Below, piece by piece: positions 5,293-43,271 of a stretch of DNA of 64,000 bases. The notes below the pieces were generated by a model, which searched no databases, had not been told where the DNA came from, and saw nothing but the letters and a program-made list of their open reading frames with translations. This stretch comes from an uncultured Polyangiaceae bacterium (GTDB taxonomy: Bacteria; Myxococcota_A; Polyangia; Polyangiales; Houyiibacteriaceae), in the NCBI GenBank assembly GCA_964195565.1, contig CAXMRN010000063.1, positions 47,701 to 111,700 on the forward strand, in the 5' to 3' direction. A program made the translations under genes and the position numbers. The stretch's first letter is position 1. Every line of letters starts with the position of its first letter.

Positions 5293-7285
5293 GCTGGCGG
5301 TCCACCAGGTCGATCAGGTCGCTCATGATGCTATCGAGCTCGTAGTCTTTGGGCGTGTAGACCGCCGCGACCCCTTCGCGGCGCAACCGCGCTGCATCCA
5401 CCTCAGGAATGATGCCCCCGGCAACTACTGGGACATCGCCAAGCCCTGCTGTCTGCAGCCGCTGCACGACTTCGGGCACCAACGCGAGGTGTGAGCCACT
5501 CAGAATACTGAGTCCGATCAGATGCACACCTTCTTCGAGCGCAGACGCGACGATTTGTTCCGGCGAGACACGAATGCCTTCGTACACCACGTCGAAACCC
5601 ACATCCCGCGCCTTGATCGCGATCTGTTCTGCGCCGTTGGAGTGCCCGTCGAGTCCGGGCTTTCCCACCAACAACTTCGCTCGCCGACCCATCCGCACTT
5701 CGAGCTCATCGAGCCGCTTGCGCAGCCGAGCGATAGTCTCCGCGGCAGGGCCGGACCCGGAGGTCTTCACCGTGGCGCCCGCGACCCCCGTCGGCGCGCG
5801 GTACTCGCCCCACACCTTGCGGAGCGTGTTGGCCCACTCGCCGGTCGTGACGCCCGCATGTGCAGCGGCGATCGAAGGAGCCATCATGTTCTGGTCGGTT
5901 CTCGCTACGCGTTCTAGCTCAGCCAGTGCTTTCTCGGCGGCGTCGTTGTCGCGTTCCGCTTTCCAGCGACCGAGCGCTGCACGTTGAGCCGCGTCAACCT
6001 CGGGATCGACCGTGAGGATAGCCTCATCGAGGTTTTCGGTGAGCGGCGAGGGGGCCCCCTCGACGTACTTGTTGACGCCGACGACCACCTGGTCGCCGTT
6101 CTCGATCGCTCGAATCCGTGCGGCATTGGATTCGACGAGCCTCTGCTTGATGTATCCGCTCTCCACGGCTTCGACGGCACCGCCCCGTTTCAAGACCTCT
6201 TGCACCTCGGCCCACGCGGAGTCGACGAGGCGCTGCGTTTCGGCCTCGACGACTTCGCTGCCTTTGAAAAGGTCCGCGTACTCGAGAAGGTCAGTCTCGT
6301 AGGCGAGGATCTGCTGCGCACGCAGCGACCACTGCTGGTCCCACGGGCGCGGCAGGCCGAGCGCCTCGTTCCAAGCCGGGAGCTGGATTGCCCGGGCCCG
6401 AGCGTCTTTGCTGAGTGTGACCGCCAGCATTTCGAGGACGATTCGAATTACGTTGTTCTCGGGCTGCTGCTCGGTGAGCCCGAGGGAGTTCACCTGCACG
6501 CCGTAGCGGAAGCGCCGATGCTTGGGGTCGGTTACGCCGTAGCGCTCCTGCGTGACGCGGTCCCAGAGTTCGACGAACGCGCGCATCTTGCACAGCTCTT
6601 CGACGAAGCGAATGCCGGCGTTCACGAAGAAGCTCATGCGTCCGACCACTTTACCGAACTCGGCTTCGGGCACGCGGCCGGTCGCCTTGACCGCATCGAG
6701 CACTCCGATCGCGGTGACCAAAGCGTACGCGAGCTCTTGGGTCGGCGTCGCGCCGGCTTCCTGCAAGTGATAGCTGCAGATGTTGATCGGGTTCCACTTG
6801 GGGACCTCATCGACGGTGTAGGTGATCAAATCGGTGATCAACCGCATCGACGGGGCGGGCGGGAAGATGTGGGTACCGCGGGACAGGTACTCCTTGATGA
6901 TGTCGTTTTGTGTGGTCCCACGGAGGACGCTGTGGTCGACTCCCTGGTCCTCGGCTGCGGCGACGTACAGCGACAGCAGCCAAACCGCGGTCGCGTTGAT
7001 CGTCATCGACGTGTTCATCTGGTCGAGAGGCAAACCGTCGAAGAGGGCGCGCATGTCACCGATGTGCGACACGGGAACCCCGACTTTGCCGACCTCGCCG
7101 CGGGCGAGCGGATCGTCCGGGTCGTATCCGGTCTGGGTCGGCAGATCGAACGCCACACTCAGGCCCGTTTGGCCTTTGGCCAGGTTGGTCCGATAGAGCT
7201 CGTTCGATGCGGCCGCGGTGCTGTGACCCGAGTAGGTCCGCATGATCCACGGTCTGTCGCGCTCCCGCTTGCCGTCCTCCGCCAT
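5279..7285 (-). CDS. ecm: Ethylmalonyl-CoA mutase (MeaA/Ecm-type fused B12 mutase)
   Basis: The N-terminus RPWIMRTYSGHSTAAASNELYRTNLAKGQTGLSVAFDLPTQTGYD is typical of MeaA/Ecm. The C-terminal B12-binding domain carries GLDGHSNG. I chose the ATG at 7285 (MAEDGK) because AGGAAGG lies upstream. The track instead starts at the TTG at 7306. Confidence 0.85.
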   Translation of the reverse strand: MAEDGKRERDRPWIMRTYSGHSTAAASNELYRTNLAKGQTGLSVAFDLPTQTGYDPDDPLARGEVGKVGVPVSHIGDMRALFDGLPLDQMNTSMTINATAVWLLSLYVAAAEDQGVDHSVLRGTTQNDIIKEYLSRGTHIFPPAPSMRLITDLITYTVDEVPKWNPINICSYHLQEAGATPTQELAYALVTAIGVLDAVKATGRVPEAEFGKVVGRMSFFVNAGIRFVEELCKMRAFVELWDRVTQERYGVTDPKHRRFRYGVQVNSLGLTEQQPENNVIRIVLEMLAVTLSKDARARAIQLPAWNEALGLPRPWDQQWSLRAQQILAYETDLLEYADLFKGSEVVEAETQRLVDSAWAEVQEVLKRGGAVEAVESGYIKQRLVESNAARIRAIENGDQVVVGVNKYVEGAPSPLTENLDEAILTVDPEVDAAQRAALGRWKAERDNDAAEKALAELERVARTDQNMMAPSIAAAHAGVTTGEWANTLRKVWGEYRAPTGVAGATVKTSGSGPAAETIARLRKRLDELEVRMGRRAKLLVGKPGLDGHSNGAEQIAIKARDVGFDVVYEGIRVSPEQIVASALEEGVHLIGLSILSGSHLALVPEVVQRLQTAGLGDVPVVAGGIIPEVDAARLRREGVAAVYTPKDYELDSIMSDLIDLVDRQHAAE

Positions 7286-7313
7286 CGCCGGTCCCTTCCT
7301 CTGCAATCCGCAA

Positions 7314-7340
7314 TCTGCCCCATCTATCCAGGGGGGCAGA
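7314..7340 (-). promoter_or_regulatory. Hairpin in the presumed ecm leader (tCTGCCCC-N11-GGGGCAGa)
   Basis: An 8-bp inverted repeat was read directly from the sequence. It lies 29-55 nt upstream of the ecm ATG. Its function is unknown. Confidence 0.3.
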
Positions 7341-7390
7341 AGCCTACATCGTTTTTCGCGTTGCTTGCGTTCTAGGCCCGCGTGACCGTT

Positions 7391-7433
7391 GCGGTGCTCT
7401 TTACAGCTTCACACGGTCGAGCCCGGTGCTCTT
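7391..7433. promoter_or_regulatory. Two perfect 11-bp direct repeats CGGTGCTCTTT, a candidate operator in the divergent ecm/regulator region
   Basis: The repeats occupy 7391-7401 and 7423-7433. The start-to-start spacing is 32 bp, about 3 helical turns. Confidence 0.35.
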
Positions 7434-7535
7434 TGGACTATCATACGGCCGGTAGGGGTCAAGCAGCCGGGAAACATGGGTTTTCGAGTGTTCGCCCGCC
7501 TGGTGGATCCTGTAAATTTGCGGTAAACGACCCGG

Positions 7536-9041
7536 ATGGCGGAGACGAACGCAGCGATGGGGCAGCGTTTGCGGGAGCTTCGGCTGCGGCGGGGGTTGCA
7601 GCAAAGCGAAGTCGCCCGCCGCCTCAAGATCTCGCCGGCGTACTTGAGCCTCATCGAGAAGGGCAAGCGCGTAGTTCAGTTGCCACTCCTGTTTCAGGCA
7701 CTCGAGCTGTATGGCGTCGCGGTCGAAGACTTCATGGCGAGCCTCGGCGAGCGCCGGGTCGACGAGGGGCTCGCCCGCCTTCTCGACGAGCCCCTGTTGC
7801 GCTCTCTCAACCTGAGCGAGGAAGACCTGGCCAGCATCAGCGGGGAGCCGCGGATGGTGGCGACTATCACGGCGCTTTTCAATCTCTACAAGAACACCCG
7901 GAGCCAACTGGATCACGTCATGGCGAGCTTCGCGCAGATGGAGCGGGAGGCCGACGATGATTCCGTTCGGTTCGACTACAGCCCGTACGACGAGGTGACC
8001 GACTTTCTCGAGCAGCATGCCAATTGGTTCGAATCGCTAGAAGAGCGTGCGCAGCAGTTTCGACGCGACTGCGCGCTCGGCCGGCGCGTCACGAGCGACG
8101 ACCTCGAGCGGGGGCTCTTGGCTGAAGTCGGCGTGCGCGTGCACCGGACTCCCGACCCCGCGGACAGTTCAGTCATTCGCACGTGGGACGCCGAAGAACG
8201 AATCGTCACGGTATCCGATGATCTGTTCGAGCAGCGCTTGAAGTTCCAGCTCGCGCATACGGTCGCACTAGGTCTCTTCGATGAGGAAAAGCTACATAGG
8301 CCAATCCTGGAGGGCTACCGAGGCCAGCACTCCGAGACCCGGAAGCTGATCAAGATCCATCTTGCCAACTACTTCGCGGGCGCGCTCCTGCTCCCCTATC
8401 CGGATTTCTATCGTGAGGTCACCAGAACTCGCTACGACGTCGAGCTCCTCGCTCAGCTGTTCGAATCGTCATACGAAACGGTGGCCCACCGGATGTGCAA
8501 TCTGTCGGACCCGCGCCGCCGCGGGGCCCCGATGCACTTCCTGAGGGTCGACGTCGCGGGAAACATCTCCAAACGCTACTCCGGGGATGGAATCCGATTC
8601 CCGCATCAGGACGGCTCGTGTCCCAAAATGGCCGTGCACCTGGCGTTCCTCACTCCGAGCGTGATTACCAAGCAGTACTCTGCGTTTCCCGACGGATCGA
8701 CCTATTTCTGCTTTGCGAAGGTCGTGAGCGAACCGGAGCAGGGTTCACTCGTCAAGGGCACGACCTATAGCATCGGGCTCGGCACTCACGCGGACAACGC
8801 CCGACACTTTGCATATGCAGACGATCTGCCGTTCGCCGACCCGAAAAAAATGGCAGTCCCAGTAGGAACGACCTGCCGGTTCTGCGAGCGCACCGACTGC
8901 AACATGCGCTCGGCTCCAAGCTACAAGTTCGCATTCCGCGTCGACGAGTACACCAAGAAGGACAACTTCTTCTCGCCGCTCGTGAGTCGGGACCCGGGGG
9001 TGGACGTGCACAAGCCGGCTCGCCGCAAGCCGGCGCCGTGA
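7536..9041 (+). CDS. XRE-family HTH regulator of the ScfR/RamB/PrpR type (HTH, ImmA/IrrE-like domain and Cys-rich C-terminal domain)
   Basis: The N-terminal HTH reads MGQRLRELRLRRGLQQSEVARRLKISPAYLSLIEKGKR. The C-terminal region contains GSCPKMAVH and TCRFCERTDC. The product is 501 aa. Confidence 0.8.
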   Translation: MAETNAAMGQRLRELRLRRGLQQSEVARRLKISPAYLSLIEKGKRVVQLPLLFQALELYGVAVEDFMASLGERRVDEGLARLLDEPLLRSLNLSEEDLASISGEPRMVATITALFNLYKNTRSQLDHVMASFAQMEREADDDSVRFDYSPYDEVTDFLEQHANWFESLEERAQQFRRDCALGRRVTSDDLERGLLAEVGVRVHRTPDPADSSVIRTWDAEERIVTVSDDLFEQRLKFQLAHTVALGLFDEEKLHRPILEGYRGQHSETRKLIKIHLANYFAGALLLPYPDFYREVTRTRYDVELLAQLFESSYETVAHRMCNLSDPRRRGAPMHFLRVDVAGNISKRYSGDGIRFPHQDGSCPKMAVHLAFLTPSVITKQYSAFPDGSTYFCFAKVVSEPEQGSLVKGTTYSIGLGTHADNARHFAYADDLPFADPKKMAVPVGTTCRFCERTDCNMRSAPSYKFAFRVDEYTKKDNFFSPLVSRDPGVDVHKPARRKPAP

Positions 9042-9562: not shown

Positions 9563-10426
9563 TTGACCCAGACGAAAGTAAAGCTCGTGGTTGGCTACCA
9601 GGGCGCCGAGGGCGCGTACAGCCAGCTCGCTGCGAAGAATCACTTCGCCGGTACGGACGCGCAGGTGCGTTGCGTCGGCTACCACAGCTTTCGGGAGATG
9701 CTCGAGGCGCTCAAGGCGGGGGAGGTTGATTTCGCAGTGCTCCCCATCGAGAACTCCATCGCCGGGTCGATCAACGACAGCTACGACCTGCTTGCCGAAA
9801 CGGGACTGTCTCTGGTGGGAGAGGAGTTTCAGCCCATCGCACACTGCCTGATCGGCGCCGCAGGTGTGCCCGTTGCCGACATTCGCCGGGTCTATTCGCA
9901 TCCGGTCGCGCTCGCGCAGTGCGGCGAGTTTCTCGAGACCCTCGAGGACTGCCACGTGGAAGCGTTCATCGACACCGCTATGGCCGTCGAGCAGGTCAAG
10001 AAGGACGCCGACCCCACGCAGGCGGCCATTGCCAGCGAAGAAGCGGCGGTGCTCCATGGTTTGCCAATCTTGCGCAGGGAGATCGCCGACCATCCAGAGA
10101 ACTACACTCGTATGGTGATTGTCGCCCGGCAGCCTGCGCACCATGAGCCTGGCGTCGCGTGCAAGACCTCACTGATCTTTTCTACGATTCACGAGCAAGG
10201 CGCGCTCGCCCGCTGCATCTCGATCTTCGCGGAACGGGGCCTGAACCTCACGAAGATCGAATCGCGCCCCAAACCGCTTACGCCGTTCGAGTACGTGTTC
10301 TACGTCGACTTCGAAGGCAACGTGGATCGCGAGACGACACAGGCGGCGCTAGGAGACCTCGAGGAGGTCACCACCTTCCTCAAGGTGCTCGGTTCGTATC
10401 CGATCGGCCGCACTCGCGTCAGCTAG
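9563..10426 (+). CDS. pheA: Prephenate dehydratase (PDT plus ACT domain, no chorismate mutase domain)
   Basis: The start codon is TTG. Supporting motifs are VGYQGAEGAYSQ, ENSIAGSI and LTKIESRP. Confidence 0.85.
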   Translation: MTQTKVKLVVGYQGAEGAYSQLAAKNHFAGTDAQVRCVGYHSFREMLEALKAGEVDFAVLPIENSIAGSINDSYDLLAETGLSLVGEEFQPIAHCLIGAAGVPVADIRRVYSHPVALAQCGEFLETLEDCHVEAFIDTAMAVEQVKKDADPTQAAIASEEAAVLHGLPILRREIADHPENYTRMVIVARQPAHHEPGVACKTSLIFSTIHEQGALARCISIFAERGLNLTKIESRPKPLTPFEYVFYVDFEGNVDRETTQAALGDLEEVTTFLKVLGSYPIGRTRVS

Positions 10427-12743
10427 CGATGGCCTCTGCAACATGGGAGAGGCGATTGGCGTCGCTCTCGAGTCCCGCTGCGAGACAGGTCGCCGACACC
10501 ATCTTCAATGCGGCTGCTTCTCCGGGCCCGTCCTCTTGGTCGCGTGCAGCCGCCAGGGCCTCGAGCGCATCGATCATCGCGTCACGGCCGCGCCCTCGCG
10601 CAAGCTGCAAGCAAGCCGATGCGATTGCGATCCGGATTGCGCCGCCAGGGGTCTGGTTCGGGCTCTTCTTCGCCGCGTCGAGAGCTTGCTTGGCGGCTGG
10701 AACGTCTTCTCTGCTGATATAAGAGACGACGCGCAAGCAGTGGGCACCGGTGAGGTCACCGCCGGCCGCAATCAACGATTCGACCAGGGCATCGAACTGG
10801 TCGTGGTCCCGTTCCTTCAGCGACCGCACTAGCTCGTCGGAGCGATTCTCGAGCTCCTCTTCGAGGTCCGGAAGCGTTGGCCGCTCTTCGTCCTCCTCCT
10901 CCCGTGGCGGGCCGGACGGAAGCCGTACGGCCCGGCTGATCTCGGAGGCGCCCTCGCGGGTCTCCGGGTCGGGCTGGTACTGCACCGCTGCCGCGGCAAG
11001 GCGCACCGCCGCATTGGTGTATCCATTGTCGGCAGCGAGGGAGCCGGCTTCGAGGATTGCGTGCGCGCCGCGTCCGAGATCCCCTCCTTCACAAAGATAG
11101 GCGCCGATGGTGGCTGCCATCGACGGCCCGACCAGCGGCTCCGCCGTATGAAGGGCCTGCGCGACGAACCGGTAGACCTCGGTCCGGCGGGCCGGCGGCA
11201 TGCGTTGCACCACGGCCCTGCGAAGGAGTTCCGAGTCGGGCTTCGCTTGGGGCGTCAGCAGCCCGTCGTTGACCAGTGCTTCGAGAGCCCTTTGCCGGGT
11301 GTCCGTCGGTATCCCGTCCAACGCGACGGCAGCGTCGACGACCTGTGCGGACGACGCGGGGAGAGCGGTGCATGCGACCTCGAGGAAGCGCATGGACGAT
11401 GTGTCGAGCGTTGCGAACCGTTCTTCGAGGAGCGCGCGTGGCCCGAGGTGTTGTCGGCGCTCCGCCGACGCTTCGCGCCACACGAAGGTGCTACCGTCGC
11501 GTACGATGTCGCCGGTGGCGATCATGGTTCGTGCGGCCTCCATGATGCCCAACACCGTCGTCCCGCCGGTGATCACGAGCTGCGTGGCGATCTCGGCATC
11601 GGTATCCTGCCCGAGGATGCCAGCCGCCACCAGTAGCGCTTCGTTCGGATCGAGCGAAGGAAGGTCGATCTTCGCCGCCCGCTGCAAGCCACGAAGGCCC
11701 GCCGGGATACTCGACTCGGTCGTTCGAATGCAAAGCATGGCGGCCACCGTCTCGTCCGACAGCGCGGCGCCAATGACACTCAGGGTGGCGGGGTCGACGG
11801 CCGAGACCCGGTCGATGTAGATCCACGGGATACCGTGCTCCGATCGCAGGGCGCGGAACGTCGCCTTGAGCGCGTGGATGGCCGCTTCGCGAGGCGGAGG
11901 CGCCGCGCAGGCGATCGATTTGAGCGCGTCGGCCACGCCGGGCTCGGTCTTCTTGAGGGCCTGTCGAGTGGGCTCGAGCGCTCGCCAAGCTCCGAGGAGC
12001 GCCAGGCGAAGCCCACCAAGTGGCTCGAGCCCGCCGGGAACCGCGCCGATCTCGAGGAATGCGGGTGGGCGAAGCTCGTCACGTAGCGCGAAGACACCCG
12101 CGCGCGCGCCAATGCCCAGCTCCCCCGTCAGATAGAAGACGCACGTCTGGGACCCAGCGGCGGACTTCTTCAGCGGCTCGAGCGCATGGCGAATGCTCGC
12201 TGGAACGGGCGCGGGGTGGAGCAAGCCCACGGCCCGCCGGCATTCTTCGAGCAGCGGGCGGCTTCGGTCGATGGCCTCTCCCTGCAACGCGAACGAGGTC
12301 GTGCTGACCGACCGTCCGAACAGATAGGTCCGCGACGCGGCTTCGCGAGATTCGACGTCGAGAACGACTTCACCGGCGCGGGCCTGGTTGGCCAGTAACT
12401 GCGCGCGATCGATCGCACTACCGTTATTGGTGAGATGGCCTGCGTCGTCCTTGGCGCGTTGGACGTCGCCACTAGCGATGCCAAACGCGATGGGAAGGCC
12501 ACCGGCTGGCACAGGCTGCGATTCGGCCTCCACGAGGAGGCGGAGCGCCAAGTTGATCGCGGTCTTGAGTTCATGAAGGGTGAAGTTCGCCACCACCGTG
12601 CCGGCGAGGGACGAGATCACCTCGCCTCCCGCTCCCTGCACCTCGTTCGTGACGTAGCGCGCCCATTGCCCCGCGGCCGCGGTGGTCTCCTCTTCTTCGA
12701 AGGCGGGAGGCAGGATCCTGTGCCAGAGGACGAAACGTTCCAT
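10419..12743 (-). CDS. Large signalling-scaffold-like protein: degenerate class III nucleotidyl-cyclase-like domain, degenerate P-loop NTPase and a helical C-terminal region
   Basis: The product is 774 aa. Cyclase-like blocks are GGEVISSLAGTVVANF, IGIASGDV and GSAIDRAQLLANQARAGEVVL. The P-loop-like segment reads LTGELGIGARAG. The 3' end overlaps the pheA stop by 8 nt in a convergent arrangement. Confidence 0.6.
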   Translation of the reverse strand: MERFVLWHRILPPAFEEEETTAAAGQWARYVTNEVQGAGGEVISSLAGTVVANFTLHELKTAINLALRLLVEAESQPVPAGGLPIAFGIASGDVQRAKDDAGHLTNNGSAIDRAQLLANQARAGEVVLDVESREAASRTYLFGRSVSTTSFALQGEAIDRSRPLLEECRRAVGLLHPAPVPASIRHALEPLKKSAAGSQTCVFYLTGELGIGARAGVFALRDELRPPAFLEIGAVPGGLEPLGGLRLALLGAWRALEPTRQALKKTEPGVADALKSIACAAPPPREAAIHALKATFRALRSEHGIPWIYIDRVSAVDPATLSVIGAALSDETVAAMLCIRTTESSIPAGLRGLQRAAKIDLPSLDPNEALLVAAGILGQDTDAEIATQLVITGGTTVLGIMEAARTMIATGDIVRDGSTFVWREASAERRQHLGPRALLEERFATLDTSSMRFLEVACTALPASSAQVVDAAVALDGIPTDTRQRALEALVNDGLLTPQAKPDSELLRRAVVQRMPPARRTEVYRFVAQALHTAEPLVGPSMAATIGAYLCEGGDLGRGAHAILEAGSLAADNGYTNAAVRLAAAAVQYQPDPETREGASEISRAVRLPSGPPREEEDEERPTLPDLEEELENRSDELVRSLKERDHDQFDALVESLIAAGGDLTGAHCLRVVSYISREDVPAAKQALDAAKKSPNQTPGGAIRIAIASACLQLARGRGRDAMIDALEALAAARDQEDGPGEAAALKMVSATCLAAGLESDANRLSHVAEAIAS

Positions 12744-12904
12744 CGCGATGTACAGCTAGGCGCGCCCGGGCGCCGACTTCACGTCGGTCACCGTCTCAAA
12801 GATGCCCATGCCCCCTTATGAGGTCACGATCCCACGCAGACGGCCCCGTGTAAAGGGACTGAGGTTTCTCGACTTCCCAGTTCCGTTTGTGCTAGCTGGG
12901 AATC

Positions 12905-13870
<966 letters not shown>

Positions 13871-13871
13871 G

Positions 13872-14969
13872 GTGACGGAGGCCGCTCCGCGGGTATACGA
13901 TCTCGCCGCCGCGCATCCGGATGGTTGGTTCGAAGAGGTGCTCGCGCAGTCCCAGGATTTCGAAAAGGCGTGCGAGATCATCGGCCGCAGCACCTTAGGC
14001 CTCGCGCTGATCGCCGGCGCGCGGATTCTCAGTCTCACCGCCAACCCGCACGCGTCCGATCTGACCACTGTCGAGTTCTCGATTGGCCAAGACCCCGCTG
14101 TTCGGCAGGTGCCATTGTCCGAGTTCCGTGAGACCATTGGCCAGTTCCTCCTGACGCCCCTCGAGAGCTGGAGCCTACCGGACGACGCCGACGCGGAAGC
14201 CCTCCAGGCACACATCGGCGGGCGCTACATGCTAGAGGCGTCCTTGTTTCAAGTGCAGCCAATCGAGCTTCGCCATGACCTGGGGCTCTCCGAGCTGACA
14301 CTCCAGTTTAACGAGCTGCGCCATGTCTTGGCACTCGACGACTTCCGAGAGGTGCTCGACGAGCGCGTGCGATCCGAGCTCGAACTCGACCGGCGCGAGG
14401 GCGACGCGATCGACTTGGCGATCGTAGATCAGGCGGAAGAGGCGAACGCGGATGGCAACTGGGGTGCCACGGTCGCCATGCTCAACCCCTGGCTGAACTC
14501 GATCGCGATGCTTCTTCGCACGGGGGAGTCCGAGACCCTCGCCGAGGAGATTCATGGACGCTTGTCAGTCAGCCTCGACCTGCTTGGCACGGCGTACGCG
14601 AACATGGGCGAGCTCGATGCCGCCAACGAAGTGTTGCGACTCGGCATTCAGTGGGCTGGCGAGTCGGGCAAGGCGGGTGGTCTGTATCTTGCGTTGGGGC
14701 GGGCATCGGTTGCGGGCGACAAGCATGGTGAGGCGATCGGCTTGTTGCGGCGGGCGATTCGCTTGGGTGCCGAGGAGCGTGACGCGCTGCCCTTGTTGGC
14801 GCAGTCTCTGAGCGCCCGCGACCAGAGCATCGCAGCGATGGTGTGCAATGAGCGAGCCCGCGAGCTCGGTGCCGATGCCGACGAGCTGAAGGCGGTCGAG
14901 GCACTGCTCGAGGGGCGCCTAGGTGAGGCCTGGCCGCGGTTTCAGGCCTGGTTGAGCGACCCCGAGTAG
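13872..14969 (+). CDS. Hypothetical acidic protein with a TPR-like helical C-terminal half
   Basis: The GTG start lies 1 nt after the epimerase stop. GC3 is high. I recognised no family. Confidence 0.55.
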
Positions 14970-25431: not shown

Positions 25432-26229
25432 CTAGGAGCGGCCGTCTTGGTCCGAGCCGATGACGCCCTCGAGGGGACTCGACGCCGTGGCGTAGAGCTT
25501 GCGTTGGATTCGGCCGGCGAGGAACGCGTCGCGGCCGGCCTCGACGCCGGCTTTCATCGCGCGGGCCATCCGGACTGGGTCTTTCGCGCCGGCGATCGCG
25601 GTGTTCATCAAGACGCCATCGATGCCGAGCTCCATGGCGACCGCCGCATCGGACGCCGTGCCGACCCCCGCATCGACGATGACCGGCACGTTTGCATGTT
25701 TCACGATGATCTCGATGTTGAACGGGTTGCGGACGCCAAGGCCGCTGCCGATCGGCGCGGCAAGCGGCATGACCGCGGCGCAGCCGAGATCTTCCAGTCG
25801 TCGCGCGGCGACCGGATCATCGTTGAAATAGGGGAGGACGGTGAAACCTTCGTCCACCAGGGTCTTGGCGGCTTCGAGGGTTGCCGGCACGTCCGGGAAG
25901 AGGGTTTTCTCGTCGCCGATGACCTCGAGCTTCACCAAGGGGGTGTCGAGAAGCTCCCGTCCCAAGCGCGCAGTCCGGAGCGCATCGTCGGCCGTGTAGC
26001 AGCCCGCCGTATTCGGAAGGAGTGTGTAGTTACCTTCGCGTAGGACGGTCATGATCGAATCGGCTCCCGTCGCCTTCAAGTCGACGCGACGGACCGCGAC
26101 CGTGACTACTTCACAACCCGAGGCCCCTAGCGCGCCCCTCGCGGTATCGAGATCAGGGTACTTGCCGGTCCCCGTGAACAACCGCGAACGGAACTCGAAA
26201 CTGCCGATCTTCAGAACATCTTCGGACAC
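25432..26229 (-). CDS. thiG: Thiazole synthase
   Basis: The start codon is GTG. The sequence [19 protein letters not shown] is typical of ThiG. Confidence 0.9.
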
Positions 26230-26430
26230 CTAACCGCCTCCTACGAAATGAACCACCTCGACCCGGTCGCCTTCGTGGAGTTCGGTACTCTCGTGCCGCG
26301 CGCGCGGCACGACGTCTTCGTTGCGCTCGACGGCGACCAGCGTGTCGGCCAGCCCCAGGGAGGCCAGCAGCTGCTTGACCGTCGTGCTTTTGCCGACCTG
26401 CCGTTCTTCGCCGTTGACCACGAGTCGCAT
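26230..26430 (-). CDS. thiS: Sulfur-carrier protein ThiS
   Basis: The track ORF is trimmed to the ATG at 26430. The 66-aa product runs [12 protein letters not shown]...HFVGGG and ends in Gly-Gly. Confidence 0.85.
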
Positions 26431-26516
26431 CGACTGTGAGAGTAGGGCGGCCCCCACAACGCTGCAAGCGGGTTCGACGATGTGCGCGCCCATCGGCGGA
26501 TGATAGGCTCGGACGC

Positions 26517-27386
26517 GTGAAACGAATCGTGCAGGGAGACAATCTGGAGGTCCTCGAGACCCTCCCGCGCGAGCATGCTCGTCTGATTTACATCGACCCG
26601 CCGTTCAACACTGGGCGAAAACAGGCGCGCCAGCGCATGCAAGTTCGTGCAGCCGAGGACGGGGAGCGGCAAGGGTTCGGCGGGAGGCGCTACGAGGTCG
26701 AACGCCTCGACAGTCCGACGTACGAAGACGAGTTCGATGCGTACCTACCGTTCTTGATGAGCCGGATCGAAGCAGCGCTTCCGTGTCTGACCGCCGATGG
26801 GTCGCTCTTCGTGCATCTCGACTATCGGGAAGTGCACTACGTCAAGGTCGCGCTCGACCGCCTGTTGGGGCGCGATCGTTTTCGGAACGAGATCATTTGG
26901 GCGTACGATTTCGGAGGGCGACCGAAGCGCTGGTGGCCGGCAAAGCACGACACGCTTCTTTGGTACACCCTCGACCCCAAACGCTACGTGTTTCAGTTCG
27001 ATGAGATGGATCGGATTCCGTACATGGCGCCTGGGCTCGTCGGCAAAGAGAAGGCAGCGCGCGGCAAGACTCCGACCGACGTCTGGTGGCACACCATCGT
27101 TCCGACCAACGGCAAAGAGAAGACAGGGTATCCCACTCAGAAGCCGCTGGGGGTGCTGGAGCGGATCATCAAGGTGCACACTGAGCCGGGCGATACGGTC
27201 TTGGACTTCTTTGCGGGCAGCGGGACGACCGGCGAGGCCGCGGCGCGCAACGGCCGCGGATTCGTGCTCGTCGACGAGAGCCCGGACGCAGTCGAGGTCA
27301 TGCGAACCCGACTCGCCCAGTGGGAGCCCGAGGTCGAGGTGTTCAAGCGCGGTCAGCGCGGAACGAGCTCGACTTCGAACACGTGA
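26517..27386 (+). CDS. Beta-class N6-adenine/N4-cytosine DNA methyltransferase (orphan)
   Basis: Motif IV ([10 protein letters not shown]) comes before motif I ([13 protein letters not shown]). The start is uncertain: I prefer the GTG at 26517, while the track uses the GTG at 26436. Confidence 0.8.
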
Positions 27387-32631: not shown

Positions 32632-33510
32632 TTAGTAGTTGCGGGCTATTATTTCGGTTACTTTGCCGCGTTTTTTTGGGTCGCAGTTGATGGCTCGGGG
32701 GGCGGCTACTGTGGCGATGTTGAAGTCTTTGTAGAGCTCTCGGGTGAAGGGGACGTCGCTGTTGGAGAGCATGAGCTTGCAGCCGCGGCGGTCGAGGGCT
32801 TTGTAGACGTCGCGTAGGCGGGTTTGGTCTTCTTGGGAGAAGCCGTCTCGGGCGTACGCGGTGAAGCTAGCGGTTTGGGAGACCGGCTCGTAGGGCGGAT
32901 CGAAGTAGACGAAGTCGCCGGGCTTCGCGTTCTCGAGCAGTGCGTCGAACGGCGCGCACCTCAGTTGGGCGTCTCGTAGTGCGAGGCTTGCCGCGCGCAG
33001 ACCGTCCTCGTTCAGAATCCGGGGATTCTTGTACGACCCGACCGGTACGTTGAACTCGCCTTTGCGGTTCACCCGGTGCAACCCGTTGAAGCAGGTCTTG
33101 TTGAGGTAGATGAACATCGCTGCACGCTTCGAGACGGAGACCCGCCGACCTTGGTTGTAGCGTTCGCGGACTTGATAGTAGCTTTCCTTCGAGTGGCGGC
33201 CGGCCAGTCCGCGCAGCGCCACGATCACTCGACCGACGTCGTCGCGGATCGCGGAGTAGGCTGCCACGAGAGTCGGATTGATGTCCGTCAGCAGCGCTCG
33301 CCCTGGGCGGCGCGAAAAAAAGAGCGCGCCGCCGCCGACGAATGGCTCGACGTGGCGCATGTGCTCTACCCCTGAAGGGAGCAGCGGTCGCAGTTGGCTG
33401 AGCAATCGGCCCTTTCCCCCCACCCACTTCACAAAGGGGGCTGCCTCCCGTGGCTGTTGCTCTAGCCTCACCGCGACCGCTGCAGATGTCGTCATGTGTA
33501 GTATGATCAC
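32632..33510 (-). CDS. dam: Dam-family (D12 class) N6-adenine DNA methyltransferase (orphan)
   Basis: Supporting motifs are FVKWVGGKGRLL and FVYFDPPY. An alternative ATG start lies at 33495. Confidence 0.85.
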   Translation of the reverse strand: MIILHMTTSAAVAVRLEQQPREAAPFVKWVGGKGRLLSQLRPLLPSGVEHMRHVEPFVGGGALFFSRRPGRALLTDINPTLVAAYSAIRDDVGRVIVALRGLAGRHSKESYYQVRERYNQGRRVSVSKRAAMFIYLNKTCFNGLHRVNRKGEFNVPVGSYKNPRILNEDGLRAASLALRDAQLRCAPFDALLENAKPGDFVYFDPPYEPVSQTASFTAYARDGFSQEDQTRLRDVYKALDRRGCKLMLSNSDVPFTRELYKDFNIATVAAPRAINCDPKKRGKVTEIIARNY

Positions 33511-37969: not shown

Positions 37970-39138
37970 CCGGCGTTCGCACGGGTCTCGACCGGATAGG
38001 TGACGGCGAGCCGGCCGCGGTCCGTCTGGTGAGAGGGCGCGACGTGGGGTTGCTGGCGCACTCGGCTAGCGTCGATCGTTCCCTTCGCCCGGCGGCTTCG
38101 GTCTTGCGACAGGCGGGCGCGAATGTCTGTGCGCTTTTTGGTCCGGAGCACGGGTTTGCTGGCGCTGCCCAGGACATGGTCGGTGTCGGGAGCCACGACG
38201 CAGAGGTTCCGATCTACTCTCTCTATGGTGACGACCCGCAAGACTTGAGCCCCAAGCCAGAGTGGCTGCGCGGCCTCGATGCGATCGTGATCGACCTGCA
38301 AGACGTCGGTTCTCGCTACTACACCTACGTCTGGACTGCCGCCCTCACGATGAAGGTCGCCGCTTCGGTCGGGACCGAGGTCGTGCTCCTCGATCGTCCC
38401 AACCCCCTCGGCGGCTCCCGCGTCGAAGGCGCGCCACAGCGCGATGGCTATCTCTCGTTTGTGGGATTGTATCCGATCGCCGTGCGGCACGGCCTGACGA
38501 TCGCAGAGCTCATGGGATGGGTTTGCGACCGAGAACGCATCGACCGCGATGTCCTCCAGGTCGTGGAGTTGGACGGGTGGGCGCGTGCCATGGAGTGGCG
38601 AGACACCGGCCTTCCCTGGGTGATGCCATCCCCAAACATGCCCACACTCGACACCGCGCAGGTGTATCCGGGTGGATGCCTCGTCGAGGGGACCAAGCTC
38701 TCCGAAGGGCGGGGGACGACGAGGCCGTTCGAGCTCTGGGGGGCGCCCGACCTCGACGTGAGCTCTTTGTTGGCGCTCGATCTACACGGCGTCTCGCTGA
38801 GGCCCGTCGAGTTCACGCCGACATTCCAAAAGCATGCGGGGCGAGTTTGCTCCGGCGTGCAGCTGCACGTCACGGACCCGTGGGTGTTTCGCCCCTACGA
38901 CGCCTATCTTCGAATGCTCGCTGCGGTGCTTCCATCGGTGGCCCTCGAGGCGCGCTGGCGGACGGAAGTCTATGAGTACGTGTCCGATCGCCCCGCGATC
39001 GACCTGCTCACCGGCGGTCCCGAGTTTCGCAACTCCGTGGACGCGGGCGCATCGGTCGCAGAGGTGCTTGCGGAGGAGGCGCGCGGCGCAGCGAGGTTCG
39101 AAGACGAGCGCCGTTCGGCGTGGATCTACGAGAAGTGA
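37966..39138 (+). CDS. DUF1343 family protein (NamZ-like exo-muramidase family)
   Basis: The TTG start overlaps the pyrB stop. Supporting blocks are [25 protein letters not shown] and MPSPNMP. Confidence 0.75.
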
Positions 39139-40076
39139 CGGAATCCCGTTTGGTCGAGCTCGATCGGCCGACCGGCCTCGTCGAGCACCCGAACGCCGGA
39201 GCCGTCGGTGACCTCTCCGATTTTGGTTCCTAGCGATTCTGCCTCGGAGGATTCGGGTGCGGTGAACAGCAGCTCGTAGTCTTCGCCGCCGGTCAGCGCG
39301 AGCGTGGTGGAATCGAGGCCCAGCGCCTCGCATGCGCCACGGTATCCCGATGCGCTTGGGAGCGCGTTGGCGTGCAGGGTCGCGCCGACGTTCGACGCGG
39401 CGCACAAGTGTTGAAGGTCTTGGGCGCAGCCATCAGAGACGTCGACAGCCGCGGTGGCGAGGTCGGCAATGCCTTGGGCCGCCTGACCGTTTATCGGGGG
39501 CCGCCGCCACCGTTCGACGAAAGCTGAAGCGTGACTCGACTCTTCCGCCTCGCGCTGAAGGATGGCCAAACCAAGCGCGGCCGAACCCAAGGTCCCAGTC
39601 ACGTACACCGCATCGCCAGGCCGGGCGCCAGCGCGCGTGACGGACTTTGCGATCGGCAAGCCAAAGACGGTCGTGGTCACAGTCAGAGACGGGCCCTGGC
39701 TCAGGTTTCCGCCGACGACTCGTCCCCCGGTGCGGCGCGCGGCCTCCGCGAGTCCCTCGATCAACTCGCGGAAGGCTTCATCCGGCAAATCCTTCGGGAG
39801 CGTGAGGGCGACGACGGAGGCGCTCGGCATCGCGGCCATGGCCCAGACGTCGCTGGTCGCCGCGACCATCGCACGGTACCCGAGGTCCCGACACGAGATC
39901 AGGTCGCGCGTGAAATGAACACCCTCGACCTGAGTGTCGACAGTGACGATGGTTGGCCGGTCGCCGAAGTCGATCACCGCTGCGTCGTCGCCAATTCCGA
40001 CGAGCACCTTCTCCGCGTCGCCGTCGAGATCGAAGCGGCTCTTCAACCAGTCGATCTTGGCAAACTCATCACGCAT
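39126..40076 (-). CDS. thiL: Thiamine-monophosphate kinase
   Basis: The product has an AIR-synthase-like fold (IGDDAAVI...VTVDTQVEGVHF). The start overlaps the histidine kinase stop by 8 nt. Confidence 0.85.
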   Translation of the reverse strand: MRDEFAKIDWLKSRFDLDGDAEKVLVGIGDDAAVIDFGDRPTIVTVDTQVEGVHFTRDLISCRDLGYRAMVAATSDVWAMAAMPSASVVALTLPKDLPDEAFRELIEGLAEAARRTGGRVVGGNLSQGPSLTVTTTVFGLPIAKSVTRAGARPGDAVYVTGTLGSAALGLAILQREAEESSHASAFVERWRRPPINGQAAQGIADLATAAVDVSDGCAQDLQHLCAASNVGATLHANALPSASGYRGACEALGLDSTTLALTGGEDYELLFTAPESSEAESLGTKIGEVTDGSGVRVLDEAGRPIELDQTGFRHFS

Positions 40077-41475
40077 CGTGGTTGGCGGCGGGAAGCGTCA
40101 CGGTGAAGATTGTGCCCTCGCCAAGCGTGCTGGTCACCTCGATCTTGCCGTCATGGCTGTCGACTAGCTGTTTGACGATCGAAAGCCCCAGGCCCGCGCC
40201 CCCGTGAGCCCGCGTCGTTCCCGCGTCTACCTGGTAGAACGCATCGAAAATTCGGGCGAGATTCTCCTCGGGGATGCCCATTCCAGTGTCACGCACGGTG
40301 AGGACCACCCCGGGTCGGCTTGCGGTGAACAACGCCGCGCCTAGCCCTCCTGGGCCTCCGGCATCGAGCTCCCCTGCCTCCGCCCGCAGGACAACGGTTC
40401 CGCCCTCGGCACTGAACTTCATCGCGTTGTCCGCGAGGTTGAGCACGATCTGCTGGAGTCGAACCGGGTCGCCCCAAATCTTGGGGGTGTCATCGGCGAC
40501 CTCGATGTCGAGCGCGACGTTGCGCCGATTGGCGTTCGGCACGATCGTCGACCCCACATCGGAGAGTAGGGCGCGAGGGTCGACGGCCTCGCTGTGAAGC
40601 TGGAGGTTCTGCGCCTCGAGGTGGCCGAGGTCGAGGAGGCTGCTGATCAAGCCGAGCAGTTGGTCTGCTTTGCCACGAATGGTCTTGAGGAACTCTGTCT
40701 GGCCATCACTGAGCGCGCCGGCAGCACCGCTTTCGAGCATCTCCGCATAGCCGATGATCGAAGTGAGCGGGGTTCGGAGCTCGTGGCTCACTGTAGCCAG
40801 GAACGTGGACTTGAGTTGGTCGAGTTGCTTCAGCTCGTCGTACGAGGTCTTCAGCGCGTCGTTCTTTTCCGCGAGCTCTCGGTAGTTCTCTCGCACGCTC
40901 GCGACCTGCATCGTCGAGGCGAGCTGCGCGCGATGGCCCGAGAAGACGAGCTGTTCGAGCACGCCTCGGAGGTGGGCACAAAGCTCCTCAGCGATGTCTT
41001 CCCGCACCCGCGGCATACGGTCGAAATGTTCGCGGGCGGTCGGTACGTCGATATCGCCATCGATCGAGGTGAGGGACGCGGGCGGGGTCTGGGTCTCCGC
41101 AGGCACGTATGGACCTAAGATGATGCGACCGATCGGACGACCCTGGTACTCGAGCAACGCGATGCGGTAGACGGCGCCGGTGAAACAAGGGTGCACGATG
41201 GCCTCGCCGTCGGGCTCCAAATCACGAACGACCCCGACGGTATTCGAGCACTCGCGTTCCCCGTTGCTCAGGGTGTTGAGGTAGTTGCACAGCGGCCGAT
41301 CACGATGCACGTCTGCGAGAAGGTCTCCTTCGTGGGAGATCACGCGAACGGGCAGGCCGAACAGGGCGAAAAACGACTTGGCGACCGACGTCACTGAATC
41401 GCGGCTCAGCACGTCTTCCAGCCGAACGACGTCTCCCATCAAGATGTCGGCGGCGTTGGTGTCGTCTTGCATCAT
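40069..41475 (-). CDS. Soluble sensor histidine kinase with an N-terminal PocR-like sensory domain
   Basis: I saw no TM segment. PocR-like Cys/His blocks are present (PLCNYLNTLSNGERECSNT, IVHPCFTGA...GRPIGRIILGP). The H-box SHELRTPL, the N box and the G boxes (RDTGMGI, GGAGLGLSI) are also present. Confidence 0.85.
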   Translation of the reverse strand: MMQDDTNAADILMGDVVRLEDVLSRDSVTSVAKSFFALFGLPVRVISHEGDLLADVHRDRPLCNYLNTLSNGERECSNTVGVVRDLEPDGEAIVHPCFTGAVYRIALLEYQGRPIGRIILGPYVPAETQTPPASLTSIDGDIDVPTAREHFDRMPRVREDIAEELCAHLRGVLEQLVFSGHRAQLASTMQVASVRENYRELAEKNDALKTSYDELKQLDQLKSTFLATVSHELRTPLTSIIGYAEMLESGAAGALSDGQTEFLKTIRGKADQLLGLISSLLDLGHLEAQNLQLHSEAVDPRALLSDVGSTIVPNANRRNVALDIEVADDTPKIWGDPVRLQQIVLNLADNAMKFSAEGGTVVLRAEAGELDAGGPGGLGAALFTASRPGVVLTVRDTGMGIPEENLARIFDAFYQVDAGTTRAHGGAGLGLSIVKQLVDSHDGKIEVTSTLGEGTIFTVTLPAANHDA

Positions 41476-42146
41476 CGTTCCTGTCGCCCCGGGTCGTGCT
41501 TCAGCTTCAGTTCGACCTCGTTCATGAACCGGGCCGGGCTGATTCCGAATTTGTTCTCGATTTGGTGCTCTTCCTCGAGTTTGTCCCAGGTCTCCCGAAC
41601 CAACCCACGAAGCGTCTGCATCACACCGTAGCCGCGCGTCGCGACCGCTTTGTAGATAGGCTCTCGACTTTGTTTGGCGATCGCCTCGAGCTCCTCATCG
41701 GTGCGAACATCGTCCATATCGCGTTTGTTGAATTGAATGATGATCGGCACACGCTCTGGGTCGATCCCGTTCTCCTCGAGGTTCCGTTTGAGGTTCAGGA
41801 ACGACTCGCGGTTCGCGTCGGCTTCGCTGCGCTGTGAGTCCGCGATGAAAGCCACACCATCCGTTGCTTGCAGGACCAATCGTCGCGTCGCGTTGTGCAT
41901 TACTTGCCCGGGGACGGTGAACAACTTCAGCCGAATCTTCAGACCGCCTTCAGAGCTGACCGTGATCGGCAGCATGTCGAAGAACAGCGTGCGGTCGTTC
42001 TTGGTCTCGAGGGTCATCAACTCGCCGCAAGCGTCCGAGGTGCCGAGCCAGTGAATTGCCCTTAGGTTGGTCGTCTTCCCGCTGAGCGCCGGCCCATAGT
42101 AGACCAGCTTCACGGTGAGCTCTTTCGCGGCGAAATCTACCTGCAT
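41472..42146 (-). CDS. MglA-like Ras-superfamily small GTPase with a roughly 30-aa C-terminal extension
   Basis: Supporting motifs are KLVYYGPALSGKTTNL, NDRTLFFDMLP, FTVPGQV and QFNKRD. The gene overlaps the histidine kinase start by 4 nt (ATGA). Confidence 0.85.
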   Translation of the reverse strand: MQVDFAAKELTVKLVYYGPALSGKTTNLRAIHWLGTSDACGELMTLETKNDRTLFFDMLPITVSSEGGLKIRLKLFTVPGQVMHNATRRLVLQATDGVAFIADSQRSEADANRESFLNLKRNLEENGIDPERVPIIIQFNKRDMDDVRTDEELEAIAKQSREPIYKAVATRGYGVMQTLRGLVRETWDKLEEEHQIENKFGISPARFMNEVELKLKHDPGRQER

Positions 42147-42174
42147 CTCAGTCGCGGATCCGCTCCGACGAGGA

Positions 42175-42525
42175 CTACCCCCGTAGCAAGAGCAACATCC
42201 CCGCCCCCATCAACACCAACATGATAAAGAACGCGGCCCATGTCAGCGTCCTTTTGTGCTCCGTGCCGGCCGGTCGGACGCGGGTGTCCTGCAACTGCTG
42301 TGTGGCGAGGACGATCAGGGTGTCGATCTGCTTGGCCGCGTAGTCCCGGCGGCCCGGGTCCGTCTCGCGGACTTCGCGATAGCGTTTTCCCGCCTCCGGA
42401 AGCCGATCGAGCGCGACGCACACACCGACGAAGCGCCGATGAGCGTCCTCGTTCCCCCATTCGGCCTCGATCTTAGCCCACGCTTCGTCGATCGGGTCCA
42501 CCGACGCCGAGGTTAGCATGTTCAC
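42175..42525 (-). CDS. Small tail-anchored protein (helical cytoplasmic domain plus C-terminal TM)
   Basis: The product is 116 aa with a GTG start (an ATG lies 2 codons in). GC3 is high in this frame. The C-terminus WAAFFIMLVLMGAGMLLLL is hydrophobic. Confidence 0.6.
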   Translation of the reverse strand: MNMLTSASVDPIDEAWAKIEAEWGNEDAHRRFVGVCVALDRLPEAGKRYREVRETDPGRRDYAAKQIDTLIVLATQQLQDTRVRPAGTEHKRTLTWAAFFIMLVLMGAGMLLLLRG

Positions 42526-42722
42526 GAAGCGACAATACTGGCTTCTTACAGCAATATTGATGCCAAATACGCTCGTGTCGCTGGAGTGAGGAAGCTCGGA
42601 CCGACTCCCGCGCGTTCATGTGGACAGGGTGGGGATTTCCCACCACGAATCCCACGTCCGATACCCACCTACATCATCCCGAAAAACCTTTTGAATTCTA
42701 TCACTTGGAGTACAGAAAGAAG

Positions 42723-42752
42723 TTGACACCAGAGGACCTCGGGCCTTAGTTT
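42723..42752 (+). promoter_or_regulatory. Candidate sigma70-type promoter of the dcw cluster
   Basis: A perfect -35 TTGACA sits at 42723-42728. After a 17-18 nt spacer comes a weak -10 (TTAGTT or TAGTTT). The MraZ boxes lie immediately downstream. Confidence 0.4.
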
Positions 42753-42761
42753 CCAGCCCTG

Positions 42762-42786
42762 GTGGGAACTTGTGGGATCAAGTGCC
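42762..42786 (+). promoter_or_regulatory. MraZ-type operator: three direct repeats with 10-bp periodicity (GTGGG-N5-GTGGG-N5-GTGCC)
   Basis: The repeats are at 42762-66, 42772-76 and 42782-86, starting 57 nt upstream of the mraZ start. This matches the E. coli MraZ operator architecture. Confidence 0.6.
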
Positions 42787-42818
42787 ATCTAGCCGCAAGC
42801 TAGGACGAGAGGGTTAGG

Positions 42819-43271
42819 TTGTTCCGAGGACGCTACGAGCACAGCATCGACGCCAAGGGCCGCACCTCGGTTCCGTCTCGCTTCCGTGAGGTGATGACGG
42901 CGCAGGGCGACTCGAAGCTCGTGGTGACGACGGGGCTGGACACCTGCCTCGTCGCGTACCCGATGGCGGAATGGCTCGCGTTCGAGAAGCGCCTGTCGGA
43001 GCTACCGCAGTTCGATACGGACGTCGTGACGCTGAAGCGCATCTACGTATCGGGCGCGGTCGAATGCGAGGTGGACAAAGTTGGACGGCTTCTGATTCCC
43101 GCGGCGCTTCGCAAGCATGCCGGACTCAAGCGCGACGCACTCTGGGCAGGGATGGGGAGCTATATCGAGCTCTGGGCGAAGGAGAGCTTCGAGGAGCTTC
43201 GTAAAGACGTCCTAAGCGATGCGGCTCGCCGTTTGGAGATCGCCAAGCGACTTGCGGAGCTCGGGTTGTGA
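42819..43271 (+). CDS. mraZ: Transcriptional regulator MraZ
   Basis: The start codon is TTG with a GAGAGGG RBS. The N-terminus reads MFRGRYEHSIDAKGRTSVPSRFRE, and a second DxxxR-type half follows. Confidence 0.9.
   Translation: MFRGRYEHSIDAKGRTSVPSRFREVMTAQGDSKLVVTTGLDTCLVAYPMAEWLAFEKRLSELPQFDTDVVTLKRIYVSGAVECEVDKVGRLLIPAALRKHAGLKRDALWAGMGSYIELWAKESFEELRKDVLSDAARRLEIAKRLAELGL

Follow-up and report, generated by a model that had tools for sequence, protein, structure and literature searches.

Which partner serves an MglA-like GTPase that is encoded without MglB and next to a histidine kinase? This question is raised by a 64,000-nt stretch of contig CAXMRN010000063.1 (assembly GCA_964195565.1) from an uncultured Polyangiaceae bacterium, called the window here, to whose positions all coordinates refer unless another locus is named. 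On its minus strand the gene of an MglA-family GTPase (41472-42146, 224 aa) runs directly into that of a soluble histidine kinase with a PocR domain (40069-41475, 468 aa), with the gene of a small, predicted tail-anchored protein ahead of the pair and thiL behind it. Comparison with related loci identified GTPase and kinase as the constant part of this arrangement. Judged from the sequences, they may act as a complex-based two-gene signalling cassette in which the GTPase provides the input of the kinase, a reading to which we assign a probability of roughly 45%. That the two are a functional pair is better supported than any direction of signalling between them.

Related loci were collected by scanning one genome per GTDB species, which yielded 80 loci, and further loci were added by contig look-ups. 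All of the 80 derive from metagenome-assembled genomes (MAGs) of Myxococcota type, save two contigs with other labels, and no named isolate was found among the matches of the homologue searches, the genome scan and the cluster look-ups. Adjacency was counted at the 77 loci whose downstream sequence extends for 2.2 kb or more. In 76 of these, a kinase catalytic core is encoded directly downstream of the GTPase, on the same strand and as a separate gene, while the 77th (L089, 3045-5042; P0254) encodes GTPase, PocR, HisKA and HATPase parts in a single protein of 665 aa. The pairing was seen at GTPase identities from 92% to as low as 46%. The two genes overlap by 4 nt (-4) in most close loci and in several distant ones, and distances of -1 to +26 nt were found in the others. 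At least six upstream contexts were seen, namely mraZ and the dcw cluster (in the clade of the window), lon, phoU-like, dynamin-like, Sua5/His-phosphatase and DHOD-type genes. Such a pairing is far beyond chance. The adjacency on which the preliminary description of this locus had staked its proposal was kept in 77/77 loci, usually with an overlap and among many different flanks.

The neighbours of the pair are less constant. A thiL gene follows the kinase in 54 of 73 loci, often with an overlapping start and even at 47-50% GTPase identity, and the gene of the small protein is present in 38 of 85 loci by tblastn and in 45 of 91 by jackhmmer. Because the pair was retained in 77/77 loci, compared with 54/73 for thiL and 38/85 for the small protein, the conserved core is a two-gene cassette of GTPase and kinase. 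The three-part composition proposed in the preliminary description has to be reduced accordingly, with the small protein as a lineage-restricted addition, and thiL, which had been taken as incidental, is in fact more steadily linked than the small protein and is a frequent passenger of the cassette.

In the window all ORFs (open reading frames) of the preliminary description were recovered, and the junctions it had reported could be read directly from the sequence. The end of the GTPase gene (GAA CGA TGA) overlaps the start of the kinase gene (ATG ATG) by 4 nt (ATGA, 41472-41475), kinase and thiL share 8 nt (ATGCGTGA, 40069-40076), and 28 nt separate the end of the small gene from the GTPase start. 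The thiL gene (39126-40076, minus strand, 316 aa) codes for thiamine-phosphate kinase (TIGR01379, 260 bits versus a cutoff of 184). A scan of the region from 38.5 to 43.5 kb revealed no terminator-like site, no sigma-70 consensus and no Rfam family above background. Upstream of the operon with thiL, Rfam matched neither a TPP riboswitch nor any other RNA at E ≤1. Given the overlaps, the 28-nt spacer and the lack of such signals, the four minus-strand genes look like one transcription unit, of which thiL is probably the last gene. The ATGA overlap points to translational coupling of GTPase and kinase.

The GTPase carries the P-loop GPALSGKTT (residues 18-26, 42069-42095), DRTLFFD with Arg52 (codon 41991-41993), TVPGQ (77-81) with Gln81 (codon 41904-41906) and NKRD (140-143). 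Wuichet and Sogaard-Andersen (2014, PMC4316618) define Group 1 of the MglA family by an intrinsic Arg, TVPGQ and the G1 and G4 motifs, and by every one of these sequence criteria the window protein is assigned to this group. Its G1 (GPALSGKT) and G4 (NKRD) motifs conform to the Ras-superfamily patterns GxxxxGK[ST] and [NT]KxD; the Arg stands beside the G2 Thr (D51-R52-T53), with R52 and T53 found in 314/314 distinct relatives; and G3 reads TVPGQ instead of DxxGQ or GTPGQ. All of these motifs are invariant among the 314 relatives, as are K24, T25, Q81, N140 and D143 individually, and the protein is therefore predicted to be a working switch rather than a pseudo-GTPase. The mean Kimura distance was 0.59 for the GTPase versus 1.00 for ThiL, so the GTPase is the less divergent of the two.

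Structure-based comparisons agree with this assignment. Pfam and NCBIfam gave only sub-threshold matches to Arf and small_GTP, but a phmmer search of the PDB retrieved MglA of Myxococcus xanthus and Thermus thermophilus (6h17, 5ymx, 3t12; E ~1e-49), to which the GTPase is about 50% identical, and nothing beyond MglA better than E 0.03. The AlphaFold2 model reached a predicted local distance difference test score (pLDDT) of 84 and a predicted template modelling score (pTM) of 0.86. When it was compared with known structures by Foldseek, the first 14 matches were MglA chains (E 1e-17 to 1e-23, target template modelling score 0.84-0.90), followed by Rab and Arf proteins at 1e-9.

Within Group 1 the kinase-linked GTPases stand apart. 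A library-wide search yielded 5958 MglA-like proteins, and in a neighbour-joining tree the kinase-linked GTPases (216-278 aa) fall outside the large clade with M. xanthus MglA, which also includes many long MglA-like proteins of 300-800 aa. For a leave-one-clade-out test, the G domain alone was scored against a hidden Markov model (HMM) of the other kinase-linked clades and against one of the remaining MglA-like proteins; each kinase-linked clade favoured the kinase-linked model by 37 to 72 bits, and MglA scored -81 bits. Residue 84 in switch II, three positions past the catalytic Gln (codon 41895-41897), is His in 100% of the kinase-linked proteins and Tyr in 100% of the other MglA-like proteins. 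Finally, the G domain is followed by a C-terminal extension of about 30-40 aa (residues 186-224 in the window protein, 41475-41591), delimited by alignment with MglA, by its conservation in the 314 sequences and by the AlphaFold2 model. It shows the motif TW..L(E/D)...L..KFG.....F.......L, with T186, W187, L190, K199-F200-G201, F207 and L215 conserved. Three helices (175-194, 196-200 and 204-215; pLDDT about 87-90 up to residue 210) are predicted to form a hairpin that continues the last helix of the G domain, and MglA lacks the extension in the alignment. Both the MglA hallmarks of the preliminary description (P-loop, intrinsic Arg, PGQ and NKRD) and the C-terminal extension of about 30 aa that it had noted are present, and from its sequence the protein is best described as a member of a distinct, kinase-linked subfamily of Group 1. 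Relatives are currently labelled 'gliding motility protein', 'MglA' or 'SRP receptor beta subunit' in databases. Three markers can serve for their annotation: His in switch II, the TW...KFG extension at the C-terminus and a PocR kinase encoded downstream.

The kinase consists of PocR (residues 21-180, 40936-41415), HisKA (222-288, 40612-40812) and HATPase_c (335-464, 40084-40473) domains according to Pfam. The PocR match (PF10114; 50.7 bits versus a cutoff of 23.9) covers the whole model and rises to 82 bits in the distant orthologue at L078; HisKA and HATPase_c scored 74.5 and 103 bits in the window kinase. With a maximal hydrophobicity (KD19) of 1.48 there is no transmembrane segment, and Pfam found no sensor domain besides PocR, which bears out the earlier view of a cytoplasmic kinase with PocR as its only sensory module. 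The H box FLATVSHELRTPLTS with the phospho-acceptor His231 (codon 40783-40785) and the N, G1, F and G2 boxes are conserved in all aligned orthologues (SHELRTP, NLxxNAxKF, DxGxG, FxxFYQ, GGxGLGL), and the dimerization and histidine phosphotransfer (DHp) helix is strongly conserved. On the strength of these conserved boxes the kinase is predicted to autophosphorylate. The motif HExxT marks phosphatase activity on the cognate regulator, and a kinase with HELRT should also act in this way.

The sensor part is more variable. Cys63, Cys76 and Cys97 of PocR (codons 41287-41289, 41248-41250 and 41185-41187) are kept in most orthologues and have disappeared from a Sandaracinus-like clade. Several lineages have lost the whole Cys-bearing middle of PocR; among these, Pfam did not recognize the domain at L053 and L055 and matched it weakly at L070. 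The N-terminal ~40 residues of the sensor are kept everywhere and follow the pattern L.ELLD...F..V..SF..L..I.....D..G..L. A sequence search of the PDB found no solved relative of the sensor part.

Partners of known systems were sought around the cassette. Pfam annotation of the roughly 40 genes of the 64-kb window detected no Roadblock/MglB protein, receiver domain, second histidine kinase or second MglA; phmmer probes of the window with CheY, MglA and MglB sequences revealed none of these either; and Robl_LC7, Response_reg, a second kinase and a second MglA were absent from the Pfam-annotated flanks of 6-10 kb at related loci. No DUF742, HAMP, OmpA-domain or coiled-coil partner is encoded beside the window cassette either. 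The kinase has the H, N, G1, F and G2 boxes of a classical two-component system and no adjoining response regulator, as the preliminary description had said on the basis of the window and as Pfam confirmed for window and flanks and the CheY search for the window. The second negative claim of that description, that the GTPase is MglB-less, stands for the window and the 6-10 kb flanks and applies to these stretches rather than to the genome. At this scale, in window and flanks, the GTPase lacks the usual coupling to MglB and is an 'orphan' member of Group 1.

The small protein is encoded at 42175-42519 (minus strand; 114 aa from the ATG at 42519, the start preferred by most gene callers); the alternative GTG start at 42525 (42175-42525) gives the 116 aa of the preliminary description. 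None of the protein or its 183 homologues belongs to a Pfam or NCBIfam family. The AlphaFold2 model (pLDDT 80) has helices at residues 9-19, 24-36, 40-53, 58-79 and 87-113, that is, four helices and a C-terminal transmembrane helix (segment 96-114, KD19 2.45; coding stretch ~42181-42249). Foldseek and a profile search of the PDB returned nothing significant, with weak matches resembling tetratricopeptide repeats (TPR). The model suggests a tail-anchored protein whose four cytoplasmic helices form TPR-like hairpins, with a faint similarity to TPR. Homologues are limited to Polyangiales, Sandaracinus-like lineages, Haliangiales and some Polyangia lineages. Among the jackhmmer matches are one MAG of Haliangiales and three of Polyangia, the latter with the match on the opposite strand at a distance of about 3.5 kb. 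The small protein is a third component that is specific to certain lineages. TPR proteins such as SgmX are recurrent partners of GTP-bound MglA (review).

From these features we propose the following working model. The cassette would be inherited vertically in Myxococcota and would supply a competent GTPase and a competent soluble kinase from one transcript, usually by coupled translation. The two proteins would form a complex in which the nucleotide state of the GTPase, displayed by its switch regions, is sensed by the N-terminal PocR-type domain of the kinase. Sensing would set the balance between kinase and phosphatase activity, or the location of the kinase, which would signal on to a response regulator encoded elsewhere. 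In the lineage of the window, the tail-anchored TPR-like protein probably acts on the GTPase at the inner membrane, as a tether or a regulator, by analogy with SgmX, and the three conserved cysteines of PocR may provide a second input (redox, metal or small ligand).

The GTPase is favoured as the input for four reasons. The kinase has no other evident input, as it lacks transmembrane segments and sensors besides PocR. The Cys-bearing part of PocR can be lost while the N-terminal segment of the sensor and the linkage to the GTPase persist. The change by which the subfamily is recognised is in switch II, where the nucleotide state is displayed. Finally, the full capacity for phosphotransfer and the very conserved DHp helix imply a conserved regulator. 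A more specific version is that the PocR-type domain was recruited as a GTPase effector, so that a membrane-tethered, GTP-loaded MglA/SofG-like switch directly toggles the kinase. The cassette would then parallel, in bacteria, the activation of a kinase by Ras, with a Ras-like switch that feeds a His-Asp phosphorelay, and it may be the missing partner system of SofG-type proteins across Myxococcota; we offer this version tentatively and hold it to be doubtful in this form.

Several observations weigh against the GTPase as kinase input. The loci were gathered from the GTPase side, and kinase orthologues without the GTPase may exist. The linkage of thiL indicates that gene order can persist here without an evident functional reason. 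In mirror-tree comparisons of GTPase, kinase and ThiL all correlations were high (r 0.89-0.94), and the pair was not singled out by the partial correlations (0.57 for GTPase and kinase versus 0.65 for kinase and ThiL). The fusion at L089 was found on a low-GC MAG contig of 6.5 kb, has a weak PocR match and forms a singleton cluster, and no relatives turned up when JGI metagenomes were scanned for it; it could be an assembly frameshift at the overlapping junction. Finally, no response regulator, GTPase-activating protein (GAP) or guanine nucleotide exchange factor (GEF) was identified at the loci.

This last point is also the starting point of the alternative that survives best. Signalling might run in the reverse direction, with the PocR kinase sensing a cytoplasmic ligand or the redox state and controlling the GTPase, either as a GAP- or GEF-like scaffold or by phosphorylation; the GTPase would then be the output, with polarity, pili or further effectors as its targets, an order that has been proposed for conservons. 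The GTPase has indeed been posited as the conservon output by Wuichet and Sogaard-Andersen (PMC4316618). Neither the window nor any flank of 6-10 kb contains a response regulator, no GAP or GEF is encoded, the relative SofG likewise has no known GAP, and the three PocR cysteines of most orthologues suggest a genuine sensory input. Yet every phosphotransfer motif is kept, including HELRT and the DHp helix, which argues for a cognate response regulator, and orphan kinases are common in Myxococcota. The degeneration of PocR in several lineages that keep the pair also speaks against this direction. We consider the reversed direction unlikely on balance.

Less probable still is that the two proteins are co-transcribed and otherwise independent. 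An ancient operon of GTPase, kinase and thiL could have been kept by promoter sharing and translational coupling, with a SofG/MglA-like GTPase that has unlinked partners and a kinase that is an unrelated orphan sensor. This would fit the retention of thiL, a gene with no evident signalling role, with its overlapping start, and the mirror-tree result, in which GTPase and kinase showed no co-evolution beyond that with ThiL. However, the pair was kept without exception where thiL and the small gene were not, it outlasted every rearrangement seen, it occurs once as a fusion protein, and the divergent, possibly non-myxobacterial GTPase at L086 again lies beside a kinase, one of a different catalytic-core subtype. 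That the protein is an ordinary MglA orthologue with mglB and a polarity module elsewhere in the genome, and with an incidental kinase next to it, fits its identity to MglA of M. xanthus and T. thermophilus, its identical catalytic set, the database labels of its relatives and the fact that mglB is missing from window and flanks rather than from a whole genome, but is very improbable given the roughly 80 bits that set the G domain alone apart from MglA in reciprocal HMM tests, the invariant Tyr-to-His exchange, the conserved extension missing from MglA, and the occurrence of mglB within four genes in 390 of 449 MglA-family members of a published survey and at none of the kinase-linked loci.

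Some loci differ from the general pattern. In the lineage of L090 (8001-8672) and L091 (711-1382; P0346), the synteny of the window is exactly reproduced (mraZ, small gene, GTPase, PocR kinase, thiL, namZ), and identity to the window is 66% for the kinase core, 58% for thiL, 61% for the small protein and only 45% for the GTPase. Its G3 motif reads AVPGLQ, with Leu in place of the catalytic Gln as in the GTP-locked Q82L mutant of MglA, and the protein may be a switch that is locked by nature or has degenerated, with its kinase nevertheless retained. At L086 (4049-4672), on a contig labelled Acidiferrobacteraceae, a GTPase of 49% identity adjoins a kinase whose H box reads HEINNPL and in which PocR is not recognisable, although its first ~40 residues resemble the start of the sensor; either the genes were transferred out of Myxococcota or the contig is mis-binned. 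L031 carries the label Coxiellaceae but has full Polyangiales synteny, and it is probably mis-binned. The locus L001 of a closed 3.5-Mb MAG (CP070713.1) was not counted as an independent context, as its block is 99.2-99.6% identical to strains with dcw context. There, a segment of 2.7 kb (5569-8245; 99.5% identical as a whole), which starts with the small gene and includes the first ~175 nt of thiL, lies between polA and a sulfate transporter gene, with the breakpoint inside thiL, and represents a recent translocation, duplication or misassembly.

At L046, L053, L083 and L094, lon ends 0-30 nt before the GTPase start, and at L094 genes for grpE-dnaK-dnaJ and an M50 peptidase are found farther upstream; the lon context may be an older, proteostasis-linked setting of the cassette. 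The 90%-identity cluster of the window GTPase also holds PocR kinases of 467/468 aa, with a kinase as its representative (P0541, P0544 and P0547, among 40 of 291 members), which suggests either bridging fused ORF calls in this clade or a clustering artefact.

Apart from the cassette, the Pfam content of the window is of the housekeeping type (mcm/meaB, SMC, purL/Q, thiG, alr, mlaE, pyrR/pyrB, namZ and the dcw genes mraZ-ftsZ). The thiG gene stands apart from thiL at 25435-26229. DNA methyltransferase genes of the N6_N4_Mtase and D12-class Dam-like types were found at 26418-27383 (plus strand) and 32635-33510 (minus strand), respectively, and no restriction enzyme was recognised among the genes scanned. 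Two ORFs with coding-type GC content at third codon positions, at 10422-12755 (minus strand, 778 aa) and 13812-14966 (plus strand, 385 aa), have no Pfam match at E ≤1e-4.

The mraZ gene starts at 42819, divergent from the GTPase operon, with which it shares the intergenic region 42526-42818. The position next to the promoter of the dcw cluster emphasized by the preliminary description is real. It is specific to one clade, with lon, phoU-like, dynamin-like, His-phosphatase or polA genes upstream of the cassette elsewhere, and lends no real support to a division role; a division role drawn from this adjacency was therefore rejected. The intergenic region contains a double box TGGGA-N5-TGGGA (42763-42777, plus strand; boxes 10 bp apart), about 45-55 nt upstream of mraZ, which is found at a fixed distance in all dcw-context loci (~30 related loci) and looks like an MraZ operator. 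On the other strand, towards the operon, a triple TGGG repeat (42642-42667) was also considered as an operator and discarded, since it is not conserved in 39 loci.

How does the cassette compare with known systems? Bacterial signalling has two main types of switch, small Ras-like GTPases and two-component systems, and hard-wired links between a GTPase and a kinase are known only from actinobacterial conservons, where the signal path is unclear, and predicted for Rup systems. With the MglA/MglB systems of M. xanthus and T. thermophilus the window GTPase shares the fold, the P-loop, the intrinsic Arg by the G2 Thr, TVPGQ, NKxD and about half of its residues. It differs by the lack of MglB in window and flanks, by the switch-II His and the helical extension, and by the kinase that is always next to it. 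The Group-1 MglA/SofG-type class controls polarity and motility in the best-studied myxobacterium; here a member of this class is linked to one kinase at all loci examined.

Among characterised proteins, SofG (MXAN_6703) may come closest, an orphan MglA paralogue of M. xanthus which, together with the bactofilin BacP, places PilB and PilT. SofG is a Group 1 protein of 239 aa, longer than MglA, and contains the intrinsic Arg; MglB does not stimulate it, and no GAP is known for it. Within the MglA family of M. xanthus, SofG alone is similar in size and likewise an orphan, and on these two properties it is the only candidate orthologue there, with orthology plausible. No kinase partner is reported for SofG in the literature consulted, and MXAN_6704, the only member of MXAN_6701-MXAN_6704 that turned up in the literature search, is a GNAT protein. 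For such orphan paralogues without a GAP the cassette offers a candidate regulator or effector.

Conservons (AGPS), which occur in Actinobacteria only, consist of the histidine kinase-like CvnA, the Roadblock protein CvnB, the DUF742 protein CvnC and the GTPase CvnD. Like the cassette, they hard-wire an MglA-family small GTPase to a histidine kinase in a locus without a response regulator, and in this joining of GTPase and kinase conservons and Group 1 Rup systems are the known systems that the cassette resembles most. Their GTPase, however, belongs to Group 2, lacks the intrinsic Arg and has GTPGQ and a deviant G4, in contrast to the Group 1 protein with Arg52 described here. Their kinase sits in the membrane, has a HAMP domain and carries an LPxR motif at its C-terminus, whereas the window kinase is soluble, has no HAMP and ends with ...TLPAANHDA, its only LPxR being at residue 41 inside PocR. 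Roadblock and DUF742 are obligatory in conservons and are found neither in the window nor in the flanks. The preliminary description was right to set the locus apart from conservons, as every conservon-defining feature fails here.

Group 1 Rup systems likewise combine a small GTPase with a signalling output, sometimes a histidine kinase, and with small uncharacterised partners, one of them membrane-anchored (PMC4316618). The Rup GTPases form another family without the catalytic Gln, in contrast to Gln81 of the cassette. Their partners are coiled-coil and OmpA-domain proteins, and in the kinase or GGDEF partner the N-terminus is taken by a Gln-containing domain instead of PocR. MglA of Bdellovibrio bacteriovorus is a Group 1 protein without MglB and has a two-component-type partner, RomR (PMC4316618). 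Unlike in the cassette, its partners are not encoded beside mglA, and no histidine kinase is involved. The B. bacteriovorus protein also acts with a TPR protein.

In the published survey of the family, Group 1 neighbourhoods 'vary widely', with occasional links to PATAN only and no kinase link reported (PMC4316618). A full-text search of the literature found no paper joining MglA, PocR and a histidine kinase, and none on a pair of MglA paralogue and kinase in Myxococcota. The cassette is spread over dozens of species-level genomes from several Myxococcota lineages, and thousands of homologous metagenome sequences exist. It provides a simple two-protein system for cross-talk between nucleotide state and phosphorylation, and compared with the systems above it is a strongly conserved, previously undescribed form of GTPase-kinase coupling.

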